IMG/VR virus record: IMGVR_UViG_3300028377_000007 | Location: 23,041 to 87,040 of that record | Direction: 5' to 3' (one strand) | DNA: 64,000 nt | Source: a virus | Shown here: positions 4,494-61,670 of the stretch, one piece after another | How positions within the stretch are numbered: the first letter of the stretch is position 1 | How the letters are laid out: each line of letters opens with the position of its first letter | Notes under the pieces: generated by a model | What the model saw: the letters and a program-made list of their open reading frames with translations, nothing else | Told to the model about the DNA's origin: nothing | The model's database searches: none | Made by a program: the position numbers and the translations under genes

Positions 4494-6663
4494 TTAGATA
4501 TTTAGGATTTTTTCTTTGTTTTTTCTTAGGTATTCGATGCTCCCAGATTTTTCAAAATCTATATACTTTAAAATCTCATATTTTTTAGATATGGATTCTG
4601 ATTGTTCTTTTAGGGCATCGTGCACGGATATTAAAGCTTTATGTATTTTATTCCCATTGATTTTTGGATACTCAAAAAACTTTTCTGTTGATATTTTTGA
4701 ATGCTTTAAATATGAATGATAACAATTTTCGCAATCATAAGAAAAGCTATAGTCCACACTTCTTTCGGATATTTCAATTTTTAATGGAGACTTGTCCTTT
4801 TTGATAATTGATTTATACAAAGAAAGACCAAACATTGAGCTATTTTCGTGGGAATAAATTCTAAAAGATGGGTGAGCATTAATAATAGATTTCCTGATAT
4901 CATACTTTTTGTGCTTAATTTCAGATTTGATCTTTTCATCTAGGTTAACCCAAGAAGATTCTAAGTCTTTGATGTCATTTTCTCTAATAATATAAATGTT
5001 TTTGATTTCAAAAGTAATTCTAGCGGTTTCGTATTCAAAAAACTCTAATCTAGCAGAGCTATTCTTTACAGAAAAATGCTTCGTTGGAATATAATACTTT
5101 TCCTCTAGTTCATCTAGTTCATCAATTTCATCTTCTGTTAATGGCTTTGAACATCTTCTATCTGAAACATCTGAGTACTTAAATTTAAAAAACTTAACCC
5201 CTGACTTTTTTTCCACCTTACTCAAGTTGCTAGCTTTTGCTCCTGTTCTTGTTTTTACTTCAAAACTCCAATTTGAAATATCTACAATCTCAATACCCAA
5301 TTTATCTTTCCCGCCAACAAGATTGATTAGGTTTTCCAACTCTTTTGGTTCTTTGATTTCAATATTGTCCTCTCTTGAATCAGATTCGATATTATCTTTG
5401 AATTTAGCTGCACTTCTTTTCCCTTCTATATTAATATATAGTTTCTCTATTTGGTCGAAGTGAATGCGGTCGGTGTTATCTGACTTTAAAACCCTTCCAT
5501 ACCCTCTGACTTTAGACCTAAAATAATAATTCTTTCCAGAAATCTTAAATGGGTGAAAAATATTCAAAAACACACCATTAAAAGAAAGTTCGTCATATAC
5601 TTTTCTATAGAATGGAAAAACTTTCTTAGATAATGCTAAAGCCTCTTTAAGCGTCTTTGTTGCGCTGATCTTTTTCGAATAATCCTCTACTAAATTATCA
5701 TATATTTTTAGAAAATAATTGCCAAGGTTAATTACAGTTTTCTTATCCAGCGTTAGGTTTTCTCTACTAGGAGGAAAAGAAACTTCTTTTGGTAAAACAT
5801 ACAAATGAATAGAAAAAGAGTTTAAAAGATCATCAATATTGTTATAATCTTTTTCGCTAAAAGAACTTTCTATTTTTCTGAGAAGTTCATGCTTATCAAA
5901 GTTATAGGCAATATTGGCCATGATAACTTTTTTCTGACCATCATTTTTTCTACGAATCTTATATTTAACTCCATCGCTCAAATCTTTTTCAAAATCAAAT
6001 TCAGGAATATGATCGTCAAAACTAAAAGAGGGATCATTTGTAATCACTGGCAACACAGAAAAGAAACTAAAACACTCTTTTGCTGTCCTATTAAAATAAT
6101 TTACTTCGCAATCACCGATTGAAAAAGAAATCTCTAATCCATTAGGTTGATCTGTATCGAATGTGCCGATGTTATAAACAGTATTATTGTTTTTATCATT
6201 AATTCTTACTTCATAGACGCCAAGCTTTCCATTTTGAAAAGTCTTAACAATAAAAGAGTCATTACCTTCGATTGCTAATGGGGCGAACCTACCAATCCCA
6301 AAACAACCAGCTTGATTTTCGCTTTGAAAATTATCCTCTCTTTTTGTACTTTTACCAAAGAGATTATATGCGGTATCCATTCTTTCAAACGAAATTCCGT
6401 TGCCAAAGTCTCTGATGGAACAAGTCTTATCTTCTAGAGTAGGAAGTTTAACATGAATTGGTTTATCTTGAATCCCAGAATCGAAGTGGGAATCCATAGC
6501 GTTTGTTGTGGTTTCTCTGATCGCCGCCAATTCTTTGTTGGAATAGATAAAATCCCTCAAAAGAGACGCCATATAACCGCTGTCCTCTGTATCAAAAGAA
6601 CAGTCCTTAGAACTGATTCCTTCGCTTGAGATAACTTTTTGCTTTGTGGTGATTACGTTCATT
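4494..6663 (-). CDS. rIIA: rIIA-like protein (GHKL ATPase N-terminus); start probably MNVITT
   Basis: IYSNKELAAIRETTTNAMDSH, IRDFGNG, STKR, GCFGIG, PSRENL. Confidence 0.85.
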
Positions 6664-6751
6664 TTTTGTTGATTAGTTGGTTTCCGATTTGATGCTGTCC
6701 ACAATGACAGGGAATCGGGGGTTGTCAAGCGTTTTTTCAACATTTATAATA

Positions 6752-22214: not shown

Positions 22215-23384
22215 TTAATAGTTTTCTATGGCGTGAATTAAATATTTAAGGTATAAAGGATCTTCACAACTAGCCTTCCCAGAGTCAGCCGATAACTTTG
22301 CCACTGGTTGATCATTGTTCTTCGTAACCTTCATTACAATAGACGGAACTTTAATTCCAACATCATTAGTTAAATCTGTTCCTATTCCAAAAATTGGCTC
22401 TATTTTCCCGCGACAATATTTTTCTATTTCAATTGCTTTTGGAATATTTAAGCCATCTGAGAATACAATTTTTTTAAACATAGGATCAATATTAAAATCT
22501 CTATACATTTTAACAATCATATCTGTATATTCAAAAGGACAACCACTGTCATGCCTTACTCCATCATACCCTTTTGCTAAGTCAAAGGAAAAATCCTTCA
22601 AAAACTTTTCATCCCCAAAGGTATCTGTCAAACAAATAGCTAATTTTCCCTTATATTGATTTAACCATTGTTCAAAGATTTCTTTTTGGGAATTTTGAAT
22701 TGGATATAAACTCTGAACGCCCATAAAAATTTCATGTCCCATTGTACCAATCGGAGTAGAGTCATATTTTCGCGCCAGATTAACATTTGAAGTCCCAGAA
22801 ATAAGATTGTTTGAATTAAGCATAGAAAAGATATATTCTTGCCATTCCGCGCTGAATCTTCTTCTTGTTCCAAATTCTATTAAATTAATTTGGCTTTCTT
22901 TAAGGTACTTGATTTTTTCAATTATTTTTTCTGTACCATAATGTATTTCGAATGGAGTCCCATATTTAAAACTTTTCTCGCCATAAATTTCATTCACTAT
23001 GCTCAAAACGATTGTCTCAAATAATATAACAGACAACCAACTACCTTTTGCTCGTAATTTCCAAGGCTCTGATTCATCATCGTTCTTTTCGAAAACCAAT
23101 TGCGATGGATTAAATCTAAAATCTTGCAACCACCTTATAAAGCTATCGCTAAAATAACCCAAAGATTGCAAATATTTTTTTTCTTCATTAGTAAGTTTTA
23201 GGATTTTTAGTTTATTAAATTCTTCCAAAAGATCTGATGGCCTGATAATATTATAAAAATCAGTGGCTTCCGCATTACGGCATTTAAACGTGTATTCAAT
23301 TTCTACATTACTGAACCTATCATAAACCATTTGCGCAACGGTTAATTTATAAAGATCTAAATCTAGTATGCTTTTTATAATCAT
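22215..23384 (-). CDS. pncB: nicotinate phosphoribosyltransferase
   Basis: LDLDLYKLT, EFGTRRR, GTMGHE, LTDT, RHDSG, FSDGL, FGIGT. Confidence 0.93.
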   Translation of the reverse strand: MIIKSILDLDLYKLTVAQMVYDRFSNVEIEYTFKCRNAEATDFYNIIRPSDLLEEFNKLKILKLTNEEKKYLQSLGYFSDSFIRWLQDFRFNPSQLVFEKNDDESEPWKLRAKGSWLSVILFETIVLSIVNEIYGEKSFKYGTPFEIHYGTEKIIEKIKYLKESQINLIEFGTRRRFSAEWQEYIFSMLNSNNLISGTSNVNLARKYDSTPIGTMGHEIFMGVQSLYPIQNSQKEIFEQWLNQYKGKLAICLTDTFGDEKFLKDFSFDLAKGYDGVRHDSGCPFEYTDMIVKMYRDFNIDPMFKKIVFSDGLNIPKAIEIEKYCRGKIEPIFGIGTDLTNDVGIKVPSIVMKVTKNNDQPVAKLSADSGKASCEDPLYLKYLIHAIENY

Positions 23385-37738: not shown

Positions 37739-37979
37739 TTTCTTGTTTTATTATTTTGTCGTCGAACCATTCCCAGTTTTTTGAGAAAATTGGTATTTCC
37801 TTGTCCAATTCATCTTTGTAAATTGCCGATCCGCGTTTAATATGGGTTGCTAGATCGTTCCAGTTTTTGCCACTTTTTTGAAAAATCAATTCCTGTAATT
37901 CATCTGTGTTTTTATTATTGCATTCTTTGTGGCGTAATTTATCTGCCCAATTTTGCATTTTTTCTTTACTCGCTCTCAT
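37731..37979 (-). pseudogene. chimeric ORF ending in a Thg1 (tRNA-His guanylyltransferase)-like C-terminus
   Basis: HKECNNKNTDELQELIFQKSGKNWNDLATHIKRG...DKEIPIF. Confidence 0.6.
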
Positions 37980-37981
37980 TT

Positions 37982-38272
37982 CTAATACGCTATCGATTTT
38001 TTAACCTTTGTCAATGCTTTTCCCAAAAGATTTTGCCCATCCCAATTTTTGGAATCACAGTGAATTTCAGAAATATAATCCAATCCAATCCCTATCCCCC
38101 AAATTTTATCAATCGGCGATGCCTCTACAAATTCATCCCCCGAATTTATGAGAATTTTTCTTAGATGAGGATTCTGCGTGAACTTCAATAAATTCCCATA
38201 AAAAACAATCTTTTCTTTATGATTATCCCATGTTGATTGTTTGTAATCAAAAATTTGCCGCCCTATTCTCCA
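37982..38272 (-). pseudogene. N-terminally truncated NADAR (YbiA-like) protein
   Basis: GRQI...W...KFTQN, EASPIDKIWGIG, GQNLLGKAL; in-frame stop upstream. Confidence 0.8.
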
Positions 38273-38365: not shown

Positions 38366-39736
38366 TTAAGTATATAGTTTGTAATAATAGTTTTCTTTTC
38401 CGCAAATTGATACTTTTATTTTTTTCTTTTTTATTCCGCCATACATTGATGATTTTTTTTCAATCATTGGCGCATACCCAACAACTCCGATTCCCGACGA
38501 TGATTTAGAGGATTTTATATTTTTAGAAATTAAGAATTCCTGTAAATCGCTTGTGTTATTGCCATAAAATCTAGAGTTAAAAATATATTCTCCGTTGTCC
38601 AACAAATACACAATAGCTCTATTTTTTAATATGTGTCTATTTAATCTGCCGAACCTTCTTGTTTTTTCTGATACTTCGCCGCATATATAAACTCCTTTAA
38701 TAAAAGAAAGAAATATCGGCGCATTAGAATTGCAACCACTACTTGAATAACAGCTCGTCCAACCATCGCCAAGATTCGACATATTTATCTTGTATAAAAC
38801 ATCATTCGTTATGATATACTTTTTATCATTAAATTTATAAAACTTTTGATCTAATTCAAAGTCTTCTAATTCATAAGTTTTTAGAATATATTTTATATTA
38901 TTCTTTTTTCTGGATAAATATTGTTTTAGAATGTCTATCTGTTTTTTTTGTTGTATTATTTTCTTTGAGCTTGTCGGGATTTTTAATTTTGAAAATTCTA
39001 GTAGCCCATTTAAAGAATCTTCATTTTTTTGAAATCTTGCTGCTCGTATTTTTCTTTTTGTTTTTCTTCCAACATGAATTTCTGAATCAACTTTTATGCC
39101 AGTGATATTTCGCCTTCCGTATTTTGAGCTTTGGAAGTGTATTTTCTTTTTATTGGATTTAAAGCCCACTTTAGAAATTATATTTGGAATATTATTTTTT
39201 AAAAATTCAAAAATTGTTTTTTCAGAATGATCTACTAAGAATTTTTCATTTTCACTTTCTTTGTATGAAAAAGATAAATCATCTGCGTATCTTGTATAAA
39301 CAATATCTAATTTATGTTTTTTAATAAACCGCAAAATAGCCCGATCTAATTTCAAGGCTGCTATATTTGCCACAAGTGGGCTTGTCGGCAATCCCTGCCT
39401 CGGCGCTAAGTCTATAAAACATTTATTTATTAAATCGTCGCTTATTAATTGTTTAACCATATTTGGTTTTACCGAATCAAAAAAATCTGTCAAATCAAAA
39501 TTAACAGTGTAATCATATCCTTTGTGGCAAATAGAATTTGTTATAATTGATCTTTTTGGGATAAAGCCGTGAACTATAATGTTCTTTGTTGCCCCTAAAA
39601 TAATCTTTTCTTGCGCGAAAAAACATTCTTCTAGTTCTGAGAGATATTCTTGGTATTTGTAAGATTCAGAACCAGACAATGAATATATCGTTCTATATTC
39701 TCCCTTTGTTTTTTTTGGTATTTTTATTATTTTCAT
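38366..39736 (-). CDS. retron-type reverse transcriptase with ~200-aa C-terminal extension
   Basis: HGF..RSIITNSICH (NAxxH-like), DLTDFF, QGLPTSP, YTRYADD, NITG (VTG-like). Confidence 0.9.
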   Translation of the reverse strand: MKIIKIPKKTKGEYRTIYSLSGSESYKYQEYLSELEECFFAQEKIILGATKNIIVHGFIPKRSIITNSICHKGYDYTVNFDLTDFFDSVKPNMVKQLISDDLINKCFIDLAPRQGLPTSPLVANIAALKLDRAILRFIKKHKLDIVYTRYADDLSFSYKESENEKFLVDHSEKTIFEFLKNNIPNIISKVGFKSNKKKIHFQSSKYGRRNITGIKVDSEIHVGRKTKRKIRAARFQKNEDSLNGLLEFSKLKIPTSSKKIIQQKKQIDILKQYLSRKKNNIKYILKTYELEDFELDQKFYKFNDKKYIITNDVLYKINMSNLGDGWTSCYSSSGCNSNAPIFLSFIKGVYICGEVSEKTRRFGRLNRHILKNRAIVYLLDNGEYIFNSRFYGNNTSDLQEFLISKNIKSSKSSSGIGVVGYAPMIEKKSSMYGGIKKKKIKVSICGKENYYYKLYT

Positions 39737-39758
39737 TCGCTATTCGCGAATAGCGAAT
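39735..39758. repeat. perfect 24-bp palindrome overlapping the RT start codon
   Basis: ATTCGCTATTCGCGAATAGCGAAT. Confidence 0.95.
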
Positions 39759-39766
39759 TAAGAATT

Positions 39767-39937
39767 TTTATATGCTATAATAACTATATTAAATATATAA
39801 TTAGGCGGAGCGATTAATAGTGTAGAATAATTATATATTTAATATAGTTATTATAACAAAATACATCGTAAAACTTTAATAAGCCGAGCTAGACGATAAC
39901 ATCTAAGGCAATAAAGTCTCCTTTTATTCCATATAAA
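39767..39937 (-). ncRNA. retron msr-msd RNA
   Basis: 8-bp a1/a2 repeats (39767-39774 / 39930-39937), G at 39929, two short stem-loops (39910-39928, 39883-39909), perfect 28-bp hairpin 39776-39855. Confidence 0.8.
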
Positions 39938-39938
39938 T

Positions 39939-40118
39939 TTATTCCTTGTTGATTATTTTTAACATCTTGTCCTTTTCTGAAAAAGAAAGCTTACAGTTAG
40001 AATTAATAAATTGCGTATACTGCCAATCTTCCATAAAAACTGGTATTTTTTTAGATAGATCTTTTCTGCCTAGTGACGACAAGAAGATCTTTAATTTTTT
40101 TTGTTTATTTGCTGACAT
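39939..40118 (-). CDS. 59-aa ORF directly upstream of msr-msd (not in the ORF track)
   Basis: MSANKQKKLKIFLSSLGRK...IINKE*; promoter 7 nt upstream. Confidence 0.6.
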   Translation of the reverse strand: MSANKQKKLKIFLSSLGRKDLSKKIPVFMEDWQYTQFINSNCKLSFSEKDKMLKIINKE

Positions 40119-40125
40119 GGTTTGT

Positions 40126-40153
40126 ATATTGCTGTTTTTTTTGAAGGAGTCAA
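40126..40153 (-). promoter_or_regulatory. sigma70-like promoter for the retron unit
   Basis: TTGACT-16-CAATAT. Confidence 0.65.
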
Positions 40154-40160
40154 GAGAGAA

Positions 40161-40700
40161 TTAACGATATTCTTCTTTAAAAAGTCTCCATTTTTTTGAG
40201 TCGATTTCTTTTTCGCCGCTGTCGATTTTTCTAATTACCTCAATAGCATCTACCACAGAAGAGTAAATATAATTATGTTGAAGCATCCAAAAAATCCAAA
40301 AAGGGCATTCCTTCTTTCCTTCTCCCCAAACAAAGAATATAGGTTTTTGGCATCTGTTAGCCCAAGATAATTCTTCTATTGTACCAATGGTAAAAGTTTT
40401 TTTCTCGAATACGCAAAGAACAAAATCACAGCGATCAATTAATGCTAAATCCTGTCGGCGAATATCTTTATAATCTGCAATTTTTTCATACTGCTCATTT
40501 TCACGGTATTGTTTTAGTAGATCATGTGTTTCGCTACTTTCTTCAATAAATCCTTCGTATGGTCTATTATAATGGTCCCATACAACAATATTCATTTTTG
40601 ATAATTCTTTTTTTATCTCTTGTCTTAATTGTTTGCCCCTTTCATTATCAGACTCCATTGGCCCAATGACTACTGTTTTTGTATTTTTTAATTTGTTCAT
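40161..40700 (-). CDS. nucleoside 2-deoxyribosyltransferase-like (NDT) protein
   Basis: GPME, DLALIDRCD, GTIEELSWA..QKP. Confidence 0.75.
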   Translation of the reverse strand: MNKLKNTKTVVIGPMESDNERGKQLRQEIKKELSKMNIVVWDHYNRPYEGFIEESSETHDLLKQYRENEQYEKIADYKDIRRQDLALIDRCDFVLCVFEKKTFTIGTIEELSWANRCQKPIFFVWGEGKKECPFWIFWMLQHNYIYSSVVDAIEVIRKIDSGEKEIDSKKWRLFKEEYR

Positions 40701-43284: not shown

Positions 43285-43357
43285 TGGAGTCCCGTAACGG
43301 AATCTAACCGTGTATCAAGGGTTGCAACCTTGCGCATAAACATTCTGCCAACGAGAC
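43285..43357 (-). tRNA. tRNA-Cys(GCA)
   Basis: cloverleaf, U73, CCA. Confidence 0.85.
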
Positions 43358-43364
43358 TTAAAAA

Positions 43365-44175
43365 CTAGCTTGAGATTAAAGCTTTATAAGTAAGATCTTT
43401 AAAAAGATTATTGTTTCCTTTCTTATCCACGGATTTTAGCCCGTATCCTTACACGACTGCCTTTTTAAACTTGTGGCGTTTCAAGCATATCTAAGACTAT
43501 TCTACCGTTTTTATTCTCCGTTAAAGCCGCTAAACCCTAACGAATTTTACTCCACGATAAAACTAAGATTCCTTGTGAGAATACTTAGCACCAAATTCCC
43601 TTTCGAGTGTGGCATTAAGCCGCTTTCATCTTAGATTGGACGAGATTTTTACATAATAATTGGGATTGAACCAATATACTATTCCTTTAGATGGAATTGC
43701 TATACCATTTAGCTATATTATTTTTTCCCTACTGAATGGTACTCGTCCAATCGCTTTCTTCCCTTTTGGAGAAAACTATACGATACCGCCCATTATCCTC
43801 TTCTTGCCGAAGTTTAGACCATACTTCACGAAAATTTCTTTCCATTTGTATTACCAAGAACCATTTACCTGCAAAGTTTACAGAACTTGATTACCGTTAA
43901 TTGATGCTATCTACTTATTTTGCATCCCTTAGAAATTTGCGGTTTCGCGACTCTCACCGTTGGCCTGAGTCTTAGGATAAATAAATAACTACTTCTATTT
44001 CCATAAAAGTTTAGCTTTTCAGCTTCACAATCTTGGCTTGCGTAAATAACCTTTGGTTTATGACTTCCAAGGCGATAAAGTGTAGGCTTTATCTTTCCGA
44101 TACTCTCATACCGCCATTTTCCTCCACAACTTTGTTTGTTGCTTCAATGGTGGATCTCACGCGACCCGTTTAAAA
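43365..44175 (-). ncRNA. large structured ncRNA, GOLLD-like
   Basis: ~800 nt without a credible ORF, many helices, in a tRNA cluster, own promoter; 3' part AAAAGGCAG...GGAUAAGAAAGGAAACAAUAA...GCUUUAAUCUCAAGC resembles my recollection of GOLLD 3' motifs. Confidence 0.7.
43652..43722 (-). ncRNA. tRNA-like element with CUA anticodon inside the large RNA
   Basis: D arm GCU/AGC, AUUCC-AUCUAAA-GGAAU, AUUGG-UUCAAUC-CCAAU, 6-bp AU acceptor stem, no CCA. Confidence 0.7.
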
Positions 44176-44275
44176 CTGTTAAAGAACAAAATCCTCTTTT
44201 GAAGATTATGATAATGACTATGACGTTTTTTTTTGCAAAGTCAATGCTTTTTTTGAAAAATTTGTTTTTTTAAAA

Positions 44276-44350
44276 TGGGGCGACTAACGGGGATTGAACC
44301 CGTACTCCAATCGTCACAGGATTGTACTCTACCTTTGAGTTATAGCCGCC
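44276..44350 (-). tRNA. tRNA-His(GUG)
   Basis: cloverleaf, encoded G-1, C73. Confidence 0.92.
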
Positions 44351-44355
44351 ATAAA

Positions 44356-44431
44356 TGGTAGTCCCAACAGAACTTGAATCTGTATCTTCCGATTATCGGT
44401 CGGATGCTCTAACCATTTGAGCTATAGGACT
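44356..44431 (-). tRNA. tRNA-Ile(GAU)
   Basis: cloverleaf, CCA. Confidence 0.9.
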
Positions 44432-44568
44432 ATATTAAAACCATTGCTATAATCGGCCAAATGTCAATAAAAAAACCCTTTTTGGCCACTTATAAAAAAA
44501 TAACGGGAAAGATATCTCGTCTTTCTCAAAGTTTGTCCTTTTAACAAACACTTGTGTCCGCTATATAA

Positions 44569-44645
44569 TGGTAGGCGATGTAGGATTCAAACCTACGGCT
44601 TCTTCCGTGTAAAGGAAACACTCTAATCAACTGAGTTAATCGCCC
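44569..44645 (-). tRNA. tRNA-Val(UAC)
   Basis: cloverleaf, CCA. Confidence 0.92.
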
Positions 44646-44657
44646 ATAAATATTGAT

Positions 44658-44749
44658 TGGCGGATAGTGCGGGATTCGAACTCGCGGGGGCTTTTAAACC
44701 CCATTTCTTTAGCAAAGAAACGCCTTAAACCTAACTCAGCCAACTATCC
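44658..44749 (-). tRNA. tRNA-Ser(GCU)
   Basis: long variable arm, CCA. Confidence 0.92.
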
Positions 44750-44757
44750 ATTTATAT

Positions 44758-44831
44758 TGGTGCAACTAGAGAGAATCGAACTCTCATACTAGACTTGGCA
44801 AGCCCATATCATGCCTTTAGATCATAGTTGC
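44758..44831 (-). tRNA. tRNA-Gly(GCC)
   Basis: cloverleaf, CCA. Confidence 0.88.
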
Positions 44832-44837
44832 AAATTT

Positions 44838-44922
44838 TGGTGCGGATAAAGAGATTTGAACTCTTACGCCTTTCGACAATAGCTTTTGAAACTATCATGG
44901 CTACCAATTACATCATATCCGC
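44838..44922 (-). tRNA. tRNA-Leu(CAA)
   Basis: long variable arm, CCA. Confidence 0.9.
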
Positions 44923-44926
44923 AAAA

Positions 44927-45004
44927 TGGAGCAAGATAGGGATTAGGAACCCCTAACGCTCACTTGGAAGGCGAGAACTTTTAACCTATTTAAGCTAATC
45001 TTGC
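44927..45004 (-). tRNA. tRNA-Gly(UCC), atypical T loop
   Basis: cloverleaf, CCA. Confidence 0.78.
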
Positions 45005-45011
45005 ATAAAAA

Positions 45012-45103
45012 TGGCGGAGAGTGTAGGATTCGAACCCACGGAGGCTTTTACACCCCTTTTGTTTTCAAGACAAACGCAATAACCCAGACTCTGCCAACTC
45101 TCC
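45012..45103 (-). tRNA. tRNA-Ser(UGA)
   Basis: long variable arm, CCA. Confidence 0.93.
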
Positions 45104-45251
45104 AGATATACCCATATAAACCGCCGTTTACTAAACCCAAGGGTTGTGAGCTTGGATTACTTCTTTCAATAGTGCAATTACCCATACCCGAACGCATATC
45201 CTTGATTCGGAACCGAAATTTTTATTAAATTAATTATTTATATTTTTTTTC

Positions 45252-45338
45252 TGGTCGATGCGGCGAGAATCCAACTCGCACTCTTTTTACGGAACCAGAG
45301 CCTAAATCTGGCGGGTCTAGCAATTCCCCCACGCACCG
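45252..45338 (-). tRNA. tRNA-Leu(UAG)
   Basis: long variable arm, CCA. Confidence 0.88.
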
Positions 45339-45435
45339 CTTTCTATTTTAAATCAAAGCCTTTTTCTTCGTTTAATTTAATCCACAAAAAATAGTCTGTT
45401 TCGCTAATAGCAAGCTTTAAAGTTTGTTTTTTTGT

Positions 45436-45511
45436 TGGTGCTTGCTATGGGATTCGAACCCATAAACCTCGCATTTTAAGTGCGATCCATAAACCGTTCT
45501 GGTAAGCAAGC
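45436..45511 (-). tRNA. tRNA-Leu(UAA) with short variable loop
   Basis: cloverleaf, CCA. Confidence 0.88.
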
Positions 45512-45518
45512 TTATATA

Positions 45519-45595
45519 TGGTGTATTAGCCGAGAATCGAACTCGGAACATTTTGCTTGGAAGGCAAACACTCTACCTAATTGAGTTACTAATAC
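45519..45595 (-). tRNA. tRNA-Gly(UCC), second copy
   Basis: cloverleaf, CCA. Confidence 0.9.
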
Positions 45596-45623
45596 ATTGT
45601 TTTGTATTTATTATTACAAATTA

Positions 45624-45698
45624 TGGCGTTACAACGGAAATTCGAATTCCGATCCTATAGGTGAAAGCCATAGTGTCCTACCATTAGACGATTGTAAC
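45624..45698 (-). tRNA. tRNA-Glu(UUC)
   Basis: cloverleaf, CCA. Confidence 0.88.
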
Positions 45699-45752
45699 AT
45701 ATTTATTAATTTTTAAAACTTGCTATACTTTTTATAACTTGTCAAGTTTTTT

Positions 45753-45828
45753 TGGCGGGATAGATTGGATTTGAACCAATAACGCCGAATTCTTCAGACT
45801 CGCGCTCTACCGTTGGAGCTACTATCCC
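45753..45828 (-). tRNA. tRNA-Phe(GAA)
   Basis: cloverleaf, CCA. Confidence 0.92.
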
Positions 45829-45838
45829 ATTTTTTAAA

Positions 45839-45913
45839 TGGCTCTGGAGCAGGGAATCGAACCCCGTTCAATTGGTTAACAGCCAATCCGCTCAACCGTG
45901 TGCGTTCACCAGA
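45839..45913 (-). tRNA. tRNA-Asn(GUU)
   Basis: cloverleaf, CCA. Confidence 0.88.
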
Positions 45914-45920
45914 ACAAAAA

Positions 45921-45996
45921 TGGCGGGTATGAGGGGACTGGAACCCCAATTGGAAAAGTAGACAGCCTTCCGCATTACCATATATGCTGCATGCCC
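45921..45996 (-). tRNA. tRNA-Asp(GUC)
   Basis: cloverleaf, CCA. Confidence 0.82.
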
Positions 45997-46180
45997 AAAA
46001 TTTTAAAATAATTAAACAAGAACAATAAACCTTTTTTCTATATACATTTCAATAAGAGAGTTTTGGTTTATTGTTTTAAATTTTTTTTTAAAAATTAATA
46101 ACACAAAGAAGAGTCATGTTATCTAGGATTACAAATCCCGTGCTTAGACCTTTAATATTTTTAAATACTTCTTGTGTTAA

Positions 46181-46256
46181 TGGTGGGGGTAGACGGATTC
46201 GAACCGACTGCCAATTGGTTAAAAGCCAACTGCTCGACCACATGAGCTTTACCCCC
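46181..46256 (-). tRNA. tRNA-Lys(UUU)
   Basis: cloverleaf, CCA. Confidence 0.93.
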
Positions 46257-46367
46257 TTTTATAATTAATCTGGCTGGAGAACCGAGATGAAAACTCCGTA
46301 ACATTTGTTTCGCCGCCCTTAAAACGGTCCCAGTTCTGCTTCTGGTTTGATTGTCGGTTTTTTTCGG

Positions 46368-46444
46368 TGGAGCCGCATGGGTAGATTTGAACTCCCGACC
46401 TTCTCTTTACAAGAGAGATGCTCTACCATCTGAGCTAATGCGGC
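46368..46444 (-). tRNA. tRNA-Thr(UGU)
   Basis: cloverleaf, CCA. Confidence 0.92.
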
Positions 46445-46452
46445 ATAATATT

Positions 46453-46528
46453 TGGTACTCCTATCGAGACTCTAACTCGAAACGCATTGTTCGTAGCAAT
46501 ACATGATATACAATTTCAACATAGGAGC
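46453..46528 (-). tRNA. tRNA-Arg(ACG)
   Basis: cloverleaf, CCA. Confidence 0.85.
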
Positions 46529-46529
46529 T

Positions 46530-46606
46530 TGGTACGAACGGTGGGACTCGAACCCACATATATACAGCTTAGAAGGCTGTTGCCTCTCCAATTAGACTAC
46601 GCTCGC
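46530..46606 (-). tRNA. tRNA-Arg(UCU)
   Basis: cloverleaf, CCA. Confidence 0.92.
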
Positions 46607-46725
46607 ATAAAATAAAAAGCTCTCATAACTCTTGTACGCGCAATACCAAAAGGATATTAACGGAGCAAACATATCCGAGATTATAATTTGTTAAAAGTTT
46701 GTTGATTTCATACTCGATGAGCTTT

Positions 46726-46801
46726 TGGCTGGTTAGACACGACTTGAACGCGCAACAAGAGGGTTTGGAAGCCTCTGCTCTACCAATTGAGCTACTAACC
46801 A
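46726..46801 (-). tRNA. tRNA-Trp(CCA)
   Basis: cloverleaf, CCA. Confidence 0.88.
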
Positions 46802-46810
46802 ATATAATAA

Positions 46811-46884
46811 TGGCAGATCTACCCCGATTTGAACGAGGACAAAATGGACCAAAACCATTTGTGCTACCATTACACTATAGATCT
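46811..46884 (-). tRNA. tRNA-Gln(UUG)
   Basis: cloverleaf, CCA. Confidence 0.9.
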
Positions 46885-46891
46885 GTGAAAA

Positions 46892-46971
46892 TGGGTGCAG
46901 GAGCGGGATTCGAACACCGCGTCCTTCTGGTTATGAGCCAGATATCCTAGACCAGACTAGACCATCCTGCA
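46892..46971 (-). tRNA. tRNA-Met(CAU), possibly initiator-type
   Basis: cloverleaf, CU-CAU-AA loop. Confidence 0.82.
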
Positions 46972-47046
46972 TGGTAGTAACGGTATGATTCGAACATACA
47001 ACCTACTGTTAATGAGACAGTCGCACTTCCATTGTGCTACGCTACT
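46972..47046 (-). tRNA. tRNA(CAU), elongator Met or Ile2
   Basis: cloverleaf, CCA. Confidence 0.85.
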
Positions 47047-47049
47047 ATA

Positions 47050-47125
47050 TGGTGGAGCCAGACGGATTTGAACCGACGACATCTTGCTTGCAAAGCAAGC
47101 GCTCTTCCTACTGAGCTATGGCCCC
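47050..47125 (-). tRNA. tRNA-Ala(UGC)
   Basis: G3-U70, CCA. Confidence 0.95.
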
Positions 47126-47228
47126 ATATTATCTAAAATACACCCACATCAAAAATATTTTACTATTTCTCGGACTTCGAACCCGATATAGTGTCCCGCT
47201 GAATTTATTTATACACATATTTTAGATA

Positions 47229-47305
47229 TGGTCGCCGTAGTAGGATTTGAACCTACGATCTTTTGCTCCCAAAGCAAACGCGATACCAAGCTACGCCATA
47301 CGACG
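47229..47305 (-). tRNA. tRNA-Pro(UGG)
   Basis: cloverleaf, CCA. Confidence 0.92.
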
Positions 47306-47386
47306 ATAATAATTAACCCAAGTATAAATGCGAATATAACAGAAACGCCAATCTATAAGTCTTTCTGATCACACTGATTAATTAAA

Positions 47387-47772
47387 TGGTGGAGATAAAG
47401 GGAGTCGAACCCTTGTCTTATATCTTTTTAATATATTTATTTCTTACAAGCTTAGTTTATTTTTAATTTTAAAATTCATATTTAAATAAACAAATAAATA
47501 TAAACTCGATTTTCTATTATGATTATAGACGAAAAAACTCTATAAAAATTTTACTATTCTGATTAAGCACCGCAACAATTAATAGTGATCCTTGTTTTTT
47601 GATGAGGTTTTACCCAAAGCTTACTAAGCTGCGATTGCTACTGGAGCAACTTCATCTTGGAAGCTTACGATTTTGTTGTTATCGCCAACTATGCGTGTTT
47701 TGAACTTTAAAGATGTATCTTTCTGCTTGTAAAATATACCTAGAAAATACAATCGAATCCAAGTATATCCCC
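47387..47772 (-). ncRNA. ssrA: tmRNA; tag (A)GDNNKIVSFQDEVAPVAIAA**
   Basis: 5' GGGGAUAUACUUGGAUUCGA, 3' GGGUUCGACUCCC...UCUCCACCA, tag ORF 47627-47686. Confidence 0.93.
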
Positions 47773-47783
47773 AAATAATTTTA

Positions 47784-47870
47784 TGGTGTAGGCAGACGGA
47801 ATTGAACCGCCGAGGGTTTCCCCGACTGTTTTACAGACAGTTGCCACGAACCAACAGTGACCTTGCCCAC
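47784..47870 (-). tRNA. tRNA-Tyr(GUA)
   Basis: variable arm, CCA. Confidence 0.9.
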
Positions 47871-60103: not shown

Positions 60104-60516
60104 AATATTAATCCTTGTTTTTTAAATATTTGTTTATTCAATCCTTTTCTTATTTCGTCTTCTGTTATTTCGAAAAGTTCTATGTCGTTTATTTCGCAAA
60201 ACTTTCTTTTTTCTCTGTCTCTTTTTAATTGCATTAGAAAGTTTGCTTTATTTTTATTATGGAAATGTCCAACATATTCGAAATGTTGTCTCCCTTGGAC
60301 TTCTATTGCTATATTTCTGTTTGCATTAAAAAAATCTAGAGTATATCTTGTTCCTAAAACTGGAAACTCTTCAAATACAACGTGATTTTTCCAGTATTTT
60401 TGCAAATATTTTTTTGTGGTAAATTGAACTTTACTTCTGCTTTTAGCATCCCAGTCTATTAAATATTTATGTATTTTAGCGTTTTTTTCTCTGCCATCTA
60501 TAGTTTTAAAAACCAT
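60100..60516 (-). CDS. PD-(D/E)XK / Vsr-like endonuclease
   Basis: EEFP, LDFF, IEVQGRQH, RDREK. Confidence 0.78.
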   Translation of the reverse strand: MVFKTIDGREKNAKIHKYLIDWDAKSRSKVQFTTKKYLQKYWKNHVVFEEFPVLGTRYTLDFFNANRNIAIEVQGRQHFEYVGHFHNKNKANFLMQLKRDREKRKFCEINDIELFEITEDEIRKGLNKQIFKKQGLIL

Positions 60517-61670
60517 TATTCTACACTAGAAAAAATCTTTCTAAAATATTTATAAAAATGATCCACAAATTTTTTATTTTCTTTTTGCTCTAACCATTTT
60601 ACAACTGATTCCTCTCCTTGAATTTTATCAAATGTTGGAACGTTTTCTTTTTCTAGCTCTTCTTTTAAAGATTTTTCTATGCTAAACCAAGACCCCTTTT
60701 TCTCTAAACAAGCCCAATCCAAACACGTTTCTAATATTTCTCTTTCTAGCCAAATTGATTCTCCGTCCTCTGAATCATATCTAATCGGATATTGAACAAT
60801 TGCGCCAGTTTTTTGATTATCACTTTTTCTAAATTTAACTACACATTTATGACCAAGCATTTTTCTATCGTTATCAAAAGGGTTTGTTTTTTTATCCTTT
60901 TTCTTATCGTAGATAGTAAAATTCTCCCCGAAATATCTTCTAAAATCTAAACTAAAATTAGAATAGTGATCAATCGATTTTCCACCAGCCTGACTTTCTT
61001 TTGGGGGTTTTCCGCCGTGCCCCATATCTATTGTGATTCTTACTTGCGAAATAAGAATTATTCTATGCCCCAATTTATTTGTTGGTAAAGAAAACTTTTT
61101 TAAGAATACGCTATTAGTTAAAGCCCCACCAGCAACTTTTTCTGAATCGGAGAACGGCCTCTTTAAATCCTCTTTCCTAACTAAAGCATCAGAGCTATCG
61201 ATTATAATAAAATACTTATTGTTGTTGGGGTTGTTTTCTATCAAATCTTTGATAAAATCAAAAACAACTTCTGTAACATTGCTGTCTAATATAAAAAATT
61301 TATCTTTAGAAATATCTATTCCCGCCCTTTTCAGCATTGATTTTTTTAATCTACCCTCCGCTTTAACATAAACAACTATATTTTTATCTGATGCTTTTTG
61401 AAAATTTTTAGCAAAAGATAAAGCTTGGCTAGTTTTTCCACTTTCATATGGCCCACCATGTCTATGTATACCAACTGGCAAACCGCCATCCATAGCAATA
61501 TCAAGAAGTAAGCTCCCACTTGGGATTCTACTTTCATCGTCGATAATATTATTATAATGATAATCTTTATTATTTTTGTCGTTTAAGAACTTTTGGGTTT
61601 GTTCGTAAAAAGATACATTGTTATCTTCTTTTGTTTTGGTTTTGGTTTCGGTTTTAGTTTTATTTGTCAT
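60516..61670 (-). CDS. recA: RecA/UvsX-like recombinase
   Basis: SGSLLLDIAMDGG, GPYESGKT, IIDS, ISQVR. Confidence 0.88.
   Translation of the reverse strand: MTNKTKTETKTKTKEDNNVSFYEQTQKFLNDKNNKDYHYNNIIDDESRIPSGSLLLDIAMDGGLPVGIHRHGGPYESGKTSQALSFAKNFQKASDKNIVVYVKAEGRLKKSMLKRAGIDISKDKFFILDSNVTEVVFDFIKDLIENNPNNNKYFIIIDSSDALVRKEDLKRPFSDSEKVAGGALTNSVFLKKFSLPTNKLGHRIILISQVRITIDMGHGGKPPKESQAGGKSIDHYSNFSLDFRRYFGENFTIYDKKKDKKTNPFDNDRKMLGHKCVVKFRKSDNQKTGAIVQYPIRYDSEDGESIWLEREILETCLDWACLEKKGSWFSIEKSLKEELEKENVPTFDKIQGEESVVKWLEQKENKKFVDHFYKYFRKIFSSVE

Follow-up and report, generated by a model that had tools for sequence, protein, structure and literature searches.

A minus-strand locus at positions 38366-40153 of a 64,000-nt stretch of viral DNA (positions 23,041 to 87,040 of IMG/VR virus record IMGVR_UViG_3300028377_000007; the whole stretch is hereafter called the window) plausibly hosts a genuine and apparently intact retron of an unclassified kind. 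A single polypeptide joins a reverse transcriptase (RT) to a C-terminal domain, which by analogy may be a fused effector, and its site is an accessory region in the genome of a lake phage that is large, T4-like and rich in tRNA genes. We assign to this reading a probability of about 0.78. An initial annotation, made without database searches, had already proposed a phage-encoded retron. The minus-strand sequence features that it listed are present where it had placed them; the retron identity is sustained by the class of the RT and the anatomy of the adjacent non-coding RNA (ncRNA), and the phage residence by the virus record and the phage gene set. The parts of the element are as follows.

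39929-39937, minus strand: a1 repeat TTTATATG (UUUAUAUG), 39937-39930; the candidate branching G39929 comes next
39870-39920, minus strand: msr two-tier hairpin (fold; same layout as the family msr hairpin)
39773-39858, minus strand: msd hairpin, predicted template of the multicopy single-stranded DNA (msDNA) (fold, palindrome analysis)
39767-39775, minus strand: a2 repeat CATATAAA (CAUAUAAA), 39774-39767; G39775 just before it is predicted to be templated first
39732-39761, minus strand: palindrome with 15-nt arms, 93% complementary, the 3' arm running into the RT start codon
38366-39736, minus strand: RT-fusion gene, 456 aa (P0001), with a conserved C-terminal 'W-x-S-C' domain (open reading frame, Pfam, PADLOC, homologues)
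38852-39736, minus strand: RT fingers, palm and thumb, aa 1 to ~295 (translation, alignment A1, Ec67 alignment)
38369-38851, minus strand: C-terminal alpha/beta domain, aa ~296-456 (family-invariant residues all present)

The reverse transcriptase

The RT motifs pointed out in the initial annotation are located at aa 66-71 (T66-N-S-I-C-H71, region X), 150-153 (Y150-A-D-D153) and 211-213 (I211-T-G213, region Y). The retron-specific motifs are NAxxH in region X and VTG in region Y (PMC7736814). Residues H71, Y150, D152, D153 and G213 are invariant across the homologues in alignment A1, and the N-S-x-x-H, YADD and ITG motifs are invariant in the family of homologous fusions, hereafter the RT-WxSC family. 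In the 456-aa protein Pfam recognizes RVT_1 only (8e-13). The best 25 of 36 PADLOC matches are exclusively to retron RT models (E values 1e-37 to 3e-23), among which RT-protease type XI (1e-37), XIII, RT-TIR XII, III-A, X and RT-Toprim I-C (1e-32), and are limited to the RT core. Similarly, the NCBIfam retron-TIR, Ec67 and St85 models are matched at 1e-33 to 1e-30, all far under their cut-offs, whereas the group II intron RT model is matched at 1e-8. None of the type-specific retron thresholds of the PADLOC and NCBIfam models is reached. All 11 sequence matches to solved structures are retron RTs, or entries titled only 'Retron' or 'RNA-directed DNA polymerase'. Those carrying names are Ec86, Ec67, Ec83, Ec78 and St85-family, and Ec86 is the top match (4e-13, query 56-233). 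Residues 48-345 of the Ec67 chain align to query residues 6-295, and RT and thumb therefore end at about residue 295. Judged by these sequence comparisons, the protein, which carries region X, YADD and region Y, belongs to the retron class of RTs.

A widespread family of fusions

Full-length relatives of 420-460 aa are found in protein databases with E values down to 1e-181, the closest being P0004 and P0005 (62% and 61% identity, respectively). A database clustered at 90% identity yielded 389 matches, one clustered at 50% identity 208 representatives at or below 1e-30; among the best 150 of the latter, about 60 reach through the C-terminal domain. One member resides in the chromosome of Pelotomaculum thermopropionicum SI, where it is annotated merely as 'retron-type reverse transcriptase'. 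Metagenome loci were collected with a degenerate nucleotide pattern encoding I-T-x-D...G-M-S...W-x-S-C: 52 were fetched, and 27 contain the full-length fusion. The latter plus one IMG/VR contig, after removal of redundancy, make the set of 22 non-redundant family loci used below. Full-length members are missing in the 401 Bacillota_A genomes searched (0/401). Scans by RT-motif patterns returned, among the matches listed, RT-only relatives, with no full-length member in genome contigs and one (L002) in viral contigs. The fusion is no invention of phages, and belongs to a widespread, mostly metagenomic family represented also in bacterial chromosomes.

In a quick maximum-likelihood tree the window protein groups with P0004 and P0005 (support 100) within a 13-member subclade (support 98), set apart from the main clade of 44 members; basal branches are without resolution. 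The nearest RT-only relatives (P0105, P0116, P0121, P0081, P0156) carry other long C-terminal fusions. The RT-only relatives comprise proteins of about 525 aa, one of 761 aa, and one of 1183 aa that includes a UvrD/GajB-like helicase. None can be placed in a single PADLOC retron type, so that the typed models leave out this RT neighbourhood as a whole. In one metagenome locus (L230:3057-6237, contig Ga0080004_1131639) a group II intron interrupts the RT-WxSC gene at profile position 146; the intron is matched in Rfam by RF01999 (115.9 bits) and RF00029 (51.3 bits), and carries an RT-like ORF (open reading frame) of its own, 490 aa long.

Literature searches on the RT-WxSC fusion, including PcfJ combined with retron and 'type XIV', retrieved nothing relevant, and the published table of 13 retron types has no entry with such a fusion (PMC7736814). 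As far as sequence can tell, the fusion defines an unclassified family of RT-fused retrons which fits none of the 13 types. The subtype envisaged in the initial annotation is novel as an RT-fused form within a known kind of system.

The adjacent non-coding RNA

Upstream of the RT gene the window holds the parts of a retron ncRNA, i.e. 8-nt a1 and a2 repeats with opposed G residues (39929/39775), an msr hairpin and an msd hairpin. The short repeat with candidate branching G39929, singled out in the initial annotation, is a1, and is opposed by G39775 and a2. The a1|G ... G|a2 arrangement recurs in 12 or more family loci. The msr hairpin is made of an outer stem, a 2-nt bulge, a GCC/GGC middle stem, a UAGAUG-UUAU-CGUCUA inner stem-loop and a 3-nt bulge, and it encloses the GCC..UAGAUG/CGUCUA..GGC stem-loop described earlier. 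The GAGA-capped stem-loop, initially drawn as a separate structure, is absorbed by this hairpin, since the best fold places GGAGAC in the 5' side of the outer stem. The perfect 28-bp hairpin survives as the core of the msd stem; the full arms (39858-39828/39803-39773) are 31 nt long, 97% complementary and made nearly entirely of A/T, and flank a 24-nt loop. The 209-nt leader folds at -58.5 kcal/mol, versus -33.5 +/- 4.0 in shuffled sequences (z = -6.3), and none of 200 shuffled leaders folds as well. A TTGACT/CAATAT promoter proposed ahead of the locus finds no support: CAATAT matches TATAAT at 3/6 positions, the pair fails a promoter scan, and in this AT-rich stretch the scan itself performs at chance level, with 13 sites versus 11.9 +/- 4.0 expected. 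Rfam models returned only chance-level matches to small nucleolar RNAs and microRNAs on the window stretch (E 0.1-6.5).

The initial annotation had made its reading depend on conservation of the upstream structure. The same order of elements precedes the RT in at least 13 of the 22 family loci (14 with the window). In these, an a1 repeat of 6-26 nt is followed by G (mostly GCU or GAA), an msr hairpin of 47-59 nt and a long, variable msd hairpin, and G plus a2 end 12-72 nt ahead of the start codon. Stem sequences are unrelated from locus to locus. On the 5' side the family msr hairpin consists of an outer stem, 1-2 nt, a middle stem, and an inner stem whose G-UGCG-UUU-CGC-C loop region is conserved; on the 3' side of a 3-4-nt bulge, the middle stem, 3-5 nt, and the outer stem. 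The window hairpin has the same dot-bracket layout. RNAalifold, run on a MAFFT alignment, recovered the inner helix with compensatory changes in 4/7 pairs. R1, a covariance model derived from the family msr hairpin without the window, detects the hairpin in 17 of the 24 loci searched. In the R1-based alignment, which is fitted to the model, paired cells are 81% versus 61% in shuffled alignments, the covariation score is 0.53 versus 0.20 in shuffled and 0.12-0.18 in slid alignments, and 14 of 18 pairs feature double changes. The family msr hairpin covaries.

R1 also recognizes second msr-type hairpins in some loci. In L243 (3370-3419, minus strand) the second copy resides just downstream of the RT stop codon, in L213 (3982-4031, minus strand), L222 (4419-4467, minus strand) and L237 (2723-2769, minus strand) upstream of the first copy. 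The clear ncRNAs found upstream in L243, L221 and L213 have no match in Rfam.

The palindrome overlapping the RT start codon of the window may be a translational or transcriptional attenuator. In three family loci (L243, L240, L213) a terminator-like hairpin followed by a U-run is interposed between a2 and the RT start. Taken together, palindrome and terminator-like hairpins suggest that the expression of the RT is attenuated relative to that of the ncRNA.

The C-terminal W-x-S-C domain

The extra domain had been estimated at about 200 aa. The actual size is about 160 aa, because residues 250-295 are the RT thumb. Residues D312, W326, S328, C329, R373, Y391 and G420 are invariant in the family, R367 and G392 nearly so, and the phage copy keeps them all. 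Pfam, NCBIfam, PADLOC and PHROGs gave no match for the domain, either from the window or from 23-27 family members, and a profile search against PDB sequences found none at E <= 10. The remark of the initial annotation that the C-terminus does not resemble known fused effectors (Toprim, TIR, protease) agrees with the lack of any match in the family libraries. A Toprim identity (EGxxD ... DxD) was discarded, as Pfam, NCBIfam and PADLOC found no Toprim in aa 251-456 or in the C-termini of 23 family members, and protease and TIR identities likewise, as neither is matched on the C-terminus. PcfJ was suggested by an ESM Atlas cluster (PcfJ, 0.86) and by two PcfJ-named rows in BFVD (probability 0.41 and 0.33). 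This lead to PcfJ (PF14284) gained no backing: aligned by hhalign with 8 PF14284 domains, the family profile scored a probability of 0.05%, and Pfam gave no match in 27 members.

An AlphaFold2 model of aa 251-456, based on the alignment, reached pLDDT 89.5 and pTM 0.87; it is the only usable model, since prediction of the whole protein from the single sequence gave pLDDT 32. The model features two helices, corresponding to the thumb end and a linker, and after them an alpha/beta domain in which two beta hairpins are long. A Foldseek comparison of the C-terminal part, proposed in the initial annotation, returned nothing from the PDB at E <= 0.001. In BFVD only uncharacterised phage proteins were matched (E ~1e-3, TM 0.35-0.40). 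In a wide structural search, 48 of the best 50 rows are GNAT-type acyltransferases or GNAT folds, aligned to model residues ~46-162, and in a second look all of the best 50 rows (50/50) are GNAT-type or GNAT fold. In the model, the R-x-Y-G motif would lie at a strand-to-helix junction, the place at which GNATs bind the pyrophosphate of coenzyme A (CoA). A divergent GNAT-like acyl- or nucleotide-binding fold with a catalytic Cys is a weak lead, and the only one, to the chemistry of the domain.

Single-sequence searches found no stand-alone copy of the domain. A profile search found three short proteins, encoded by contigs of 1.5-3.7 kb, one of which carries RVT_1; these are probably fragments. 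The domain has been found almost only fused to the RT of the RT-WxSC clade, and is probably enzymatic or ligand-binding.

Genomic setting

The window derives from an 87-kb virus record of 59% completeness according to CheckV. Its large ORFs are all on one strand. PHROGs matches include rIIA, a family-B-like DNA polymerase, a UvsX-like recombinase, a DnaB-like helicase, an RnlA-like RNA ligase, an ATP-dependent protease, an NAD synthetase and a TnpB-type transposase. Segments 4494-6743 and 60516-61670 of the window are grouped with the rIIA, UvsX-like, RNA ligase, NAD synthetase and TnpB-type genes. An array of 27 tRNA genes plus a tmRNA gene (tag GDNNKIVSFQDEVAPVAIAA) spans positions 43285-47870. 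The host of the retron is a large phage equipped with a T4-like set of replication and recombination genes. A megablast comparison of 20 kb with 50,697 phage records gave no match, and tblastn against the phage collection found RT-core matches only, at 26-31% identity.

The 1.9-kb retron stretch is present, among the matches listed, in 24 metagenome runs from lakes and salt lakes, and no RNA run is listed for it. Contigs from 4 runs, belonging to 4 studies, are at least 99% identical over the retron, with no indels and no stop codons. In the same 4 runs the ncRNA carries no single-nucleotide polymorphisms (SNPs) and the RT gene 7, of which 5 are non-synonymous; the five substituted residues (A49, V78, N279, S404, C445) lie outside the invariant and nearly invariant columns of alignment A1. 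Contig depth in the metagenomes is uninformative on msDNA copy number. At 28%, the RT gene differs little in GC content from the window (32%), and is therefore not a recent import.

The retron adjoins a hypervariable spot. In two runs (X3 and X18), 28 other nucleotides replace 168 nt (38097-38264) just downstream of the RT gene, and a flank at ~37784-37918 varies among strains as well. In this accessory stretch the neighbours of the retron are HNH endonucleases, an NDT-like gene and a NADAR fragment. The latter, a 68-aa ORF at 37982-38188 on the minus strand, covers only positions 99-162 of the 163 of the NADAR profile (E 3e-18), and probably represents a NADAR gene that has been truncated or split.

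Neighbouring genes

Directly ahead of the ncRNA lies an additional ORF.

39939-40118, minus strand: Lys-rich ORF of 59 aa, its stop codon 1 nt before a1 (ORF list)

This ORF has no match in the family libraries. Directly upstream of it, at 40161-40700 on the minus strand, a gene encodes a 179-aa, NDT-like protein scoring 28.3 bits with PF05014, whose cut-off is 28.8. Homologues of these two proteins are lacking beside all 22 family RT loci, and neither matches PADLOC retron-effector models. The initial annotation had counted the 59-aa ORF as a part of the system; in view of its absence from the 22 loci, nothing links it to the retron.

No gene partner is common to all the family loci. The sole recurrent neighbour, found at 7 of the 22 loci and absent from the window, is an M28/M20-like metallopeptidase-like gene (L002:5899-6756, plus strand; L243:2468-3202, minus strand; L207:2495-3388, plus strand; L197:3894-4925, plus strand; also in L213, L222 and L236). 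Its product carries HxD, GADD and EExGG motifs and is weakly matched by Pfam Peptidase_M28. The peptidase is a possible accessory component.

Proposed mechanism and alternative explanations

The mechanism outlined here follows the retron literature, as far as covered by PMC7736814 and a set of abstracts. By analogy with characterised retrons, the RT would bind the msr hairpin and prime on the 2'-OH of G39929. The msd hairpin would be copied from G39775, and the product would be a multicopy single-stranded DNA of ~85-95 nt, still joined to RNA. The fused domain would be the effector, as in Eco2/Ec67 (RT-Toprim), type XI (RT-protease) and type XII (RT-TIR). Held inactive in the RT-msDNA complex, it would be freed upon damage to, or modification of, the msDNA by another phage or a host factor. 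For a virulent phage a plausible gain would be the exclusion of co-infecting competitors; whether the benefit is competitor exclusion or counter-defence is a matter of speculation.

Several points weigh against a retron with a fused effector. R1 misses the msr hairpin of the window even with filters off, so that the covariation check put forward in the initial annotation succeeds for the family hairpin and does not extend to the phage copy. What relates the phage copy to the family RNA is architecture and position rather than sequence. Covariation comes from other family loci, the subclade of the window RT (40-62% identity) being outside the DNA covered, and a pattern scan of IMG/VR for this subclade gave no match. 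At least four family loci (L232, L224, L207, L002) have no obvious ncRNA upstream, and two more (L202, L242) have only weak matches to the model (E 0.37 and 0.01, respectively). The peptidase gene occurs at 7/22 loci and not in the phage, and the family might have its effector elsewhere. Finally, msDNA synthesis, RT activity and any phenotype are predictions, and the C-terminal domain may be called an effector purely by analogy.

The domain may alternatively be an accessory module which binds nucleic acid or protein and is required for msDNA synthesis or stability, in a retron whose abundant, AT-rich msDNA would serve, e.g., as a decoy or sponge for host DNA-binding defence sensors or nucleases. 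We regard this scenario as unlikely. It is true that an almost exclusive fusion to one RT clade is what is expected of an integral RT accessory, that no catalytic family can be assigned to the domain, that the msd stem is nearly pure A/T, as the phage genome, and that an abortive-infection toxin would be an odd cargo for a virulent phage. Yet, W-x-S-C, R and Y-G are invariant at 20-35% identity, and resemble an active or ligand site rather than a generic surface. To our knowledge, no decoy retron has been described. Moreover, the Toprim, TIR and protease domains fused to retron RTs are effectors (PMC7736814). A tripartite system, with the 59-aa ORF and/or the NDT-like gene acting as effector or regulator, as in type II retrons, would account for the same strand and tight spacing of these genes, and for the borderline PF05014 score, type II effectors being NDT-like (PMC7736814). 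It is very improbable, since neither protein recurs at the 22 loci or matches a PADLOC effector, and the RT does not fall in the type II class, as models of II-A score no better than others. Moreover, NDT-like genes are common in phage nucleotide metabolism.

A bacterial retron cassette which is decaying, or is carried as a functionless passenger inactive in the phage, would explain why the family msr model misses the phage msr, why the subclade has 'M-Y-G-G' near the C-terminus instead of the 'P-Y-x-D' of the family, and why 5/7 population SNPs in the RT are non-synonymous. However, the frame is intact, all catalytic and family-invariant residues are present, and the five substitutions spare the invariant and nearly invariant columns of A1. 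The ncRNA structure is near-perfect and invariant across runs, and the composition of the cassette is fully ameliorated. The 13-member subclade, with 98% support, points to long-term maintenance, and inactivity is in our opinion extremely unlikely. The reading of the locus as an intact single-polypeptide retron may be pushed further. The W-x-S-C domain would then be a new msDNA-gated enzymatic effector, possibly a Cys-dependent GNAT-like acyl or nucleotide transferase, the family a 14th, single-gene type, and the phage copy would have been domesticated by a virulent T4-like phage for superinfection exclusion or anti-defence, acting in lytic growth and not from a prophage. This extended version is conceivable, and on balance rather doubtful.

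Comparison with known retrons and significance

A close parallel is Retron-Eco2 (Ec67, type I-C), in which RT and a C-terminal Toprim nuclease are encoded by a P2-like prophage. In both cases one polypeptide includes RT, thumb and an extra domain, msr-msd is upstream, and the element is phage-borne. In contrast to Ec67, the phage protein lacks Toprim, profile coverage ends at about residue 300 (NF038237, 111 bits vs a cut-off of 450), and the carrier is large and T4-like, that of Ec67 being a temperate P2-like prophage. Types XI (RT-trypsin-like protease) and XII (RT-TIR) similarly feature a C-terminal fusion and no obligatory partner gene, and their models provide the best RT-core scores (1e-37; 8.5e-33 for the TIR type). 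These matches, however, span only RT residues ~51-257, the PADLOC alignments ending near query residues 234-257 and profile positions ~263-294 of 475-510, at 114-128 bits (NF042941, 114 vs a cut-off of 600), and no protease or TIR domain is present. No recognisable ncRNA has been reported for type XI, and the type XII ncRNA is listed as not determined (Mestre et al. 2020, PMC7736814); the RT-WxSC family differs from both, as described there, in having a clear ncRNA. With Retron-Eco1 (Ec86) the element shares the canonical ncRNA layout, in which a1 and a2 repeats are accompanied by a branching G (after a1) and a G opposing it (PMC7736814). Ec86, however, has an RT of ~320 aa and a separate NDT-type effector gene, as opposed to the 456-aa RT with a fused domain found here. 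Type II-A, characterised by a conserved NDT plus DNA-binding effector next to a clade 1/9 RT, does not fit: the NDT-like neighbour is under the PF05014 cut-off, matches no effector model and is not conserved at the 22 loci. Finally, the domain may be likened to the GNAT fold, including the GNAT toxins of toxin-antitoxin systems, and its R-x-Y-G would be placed as the R/Q-x-x-G-x-G/A CoA motif.

Retrons are already known in phage genomes, Ec67 and Ec73 being carried by prophages or satellites. A survey records retrons in myoviruses (bioRxiv 10.1101/2024.10.26.620412). Retrons are classed by effector, and a conserved, widespread RT-fused domain without family assignment would add an unexamined effector chemistry. 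The format, one gene plus one RNA, is the simplest one, and is also that favoured for retron-based genome-editing tools. In the phage it takes the form of a compact, AT-rich cassette of 1.6 kb, hosted by a large lytic-type phage, while the published phage-borne retrons Ec67 and Ec73 reside in temperate elements. A retron kept by a T4-like phage in lake populations raises the question of what use it may be to the virus in lytic infection, where it may serve competitor exclusion, counter-defence, or something else.

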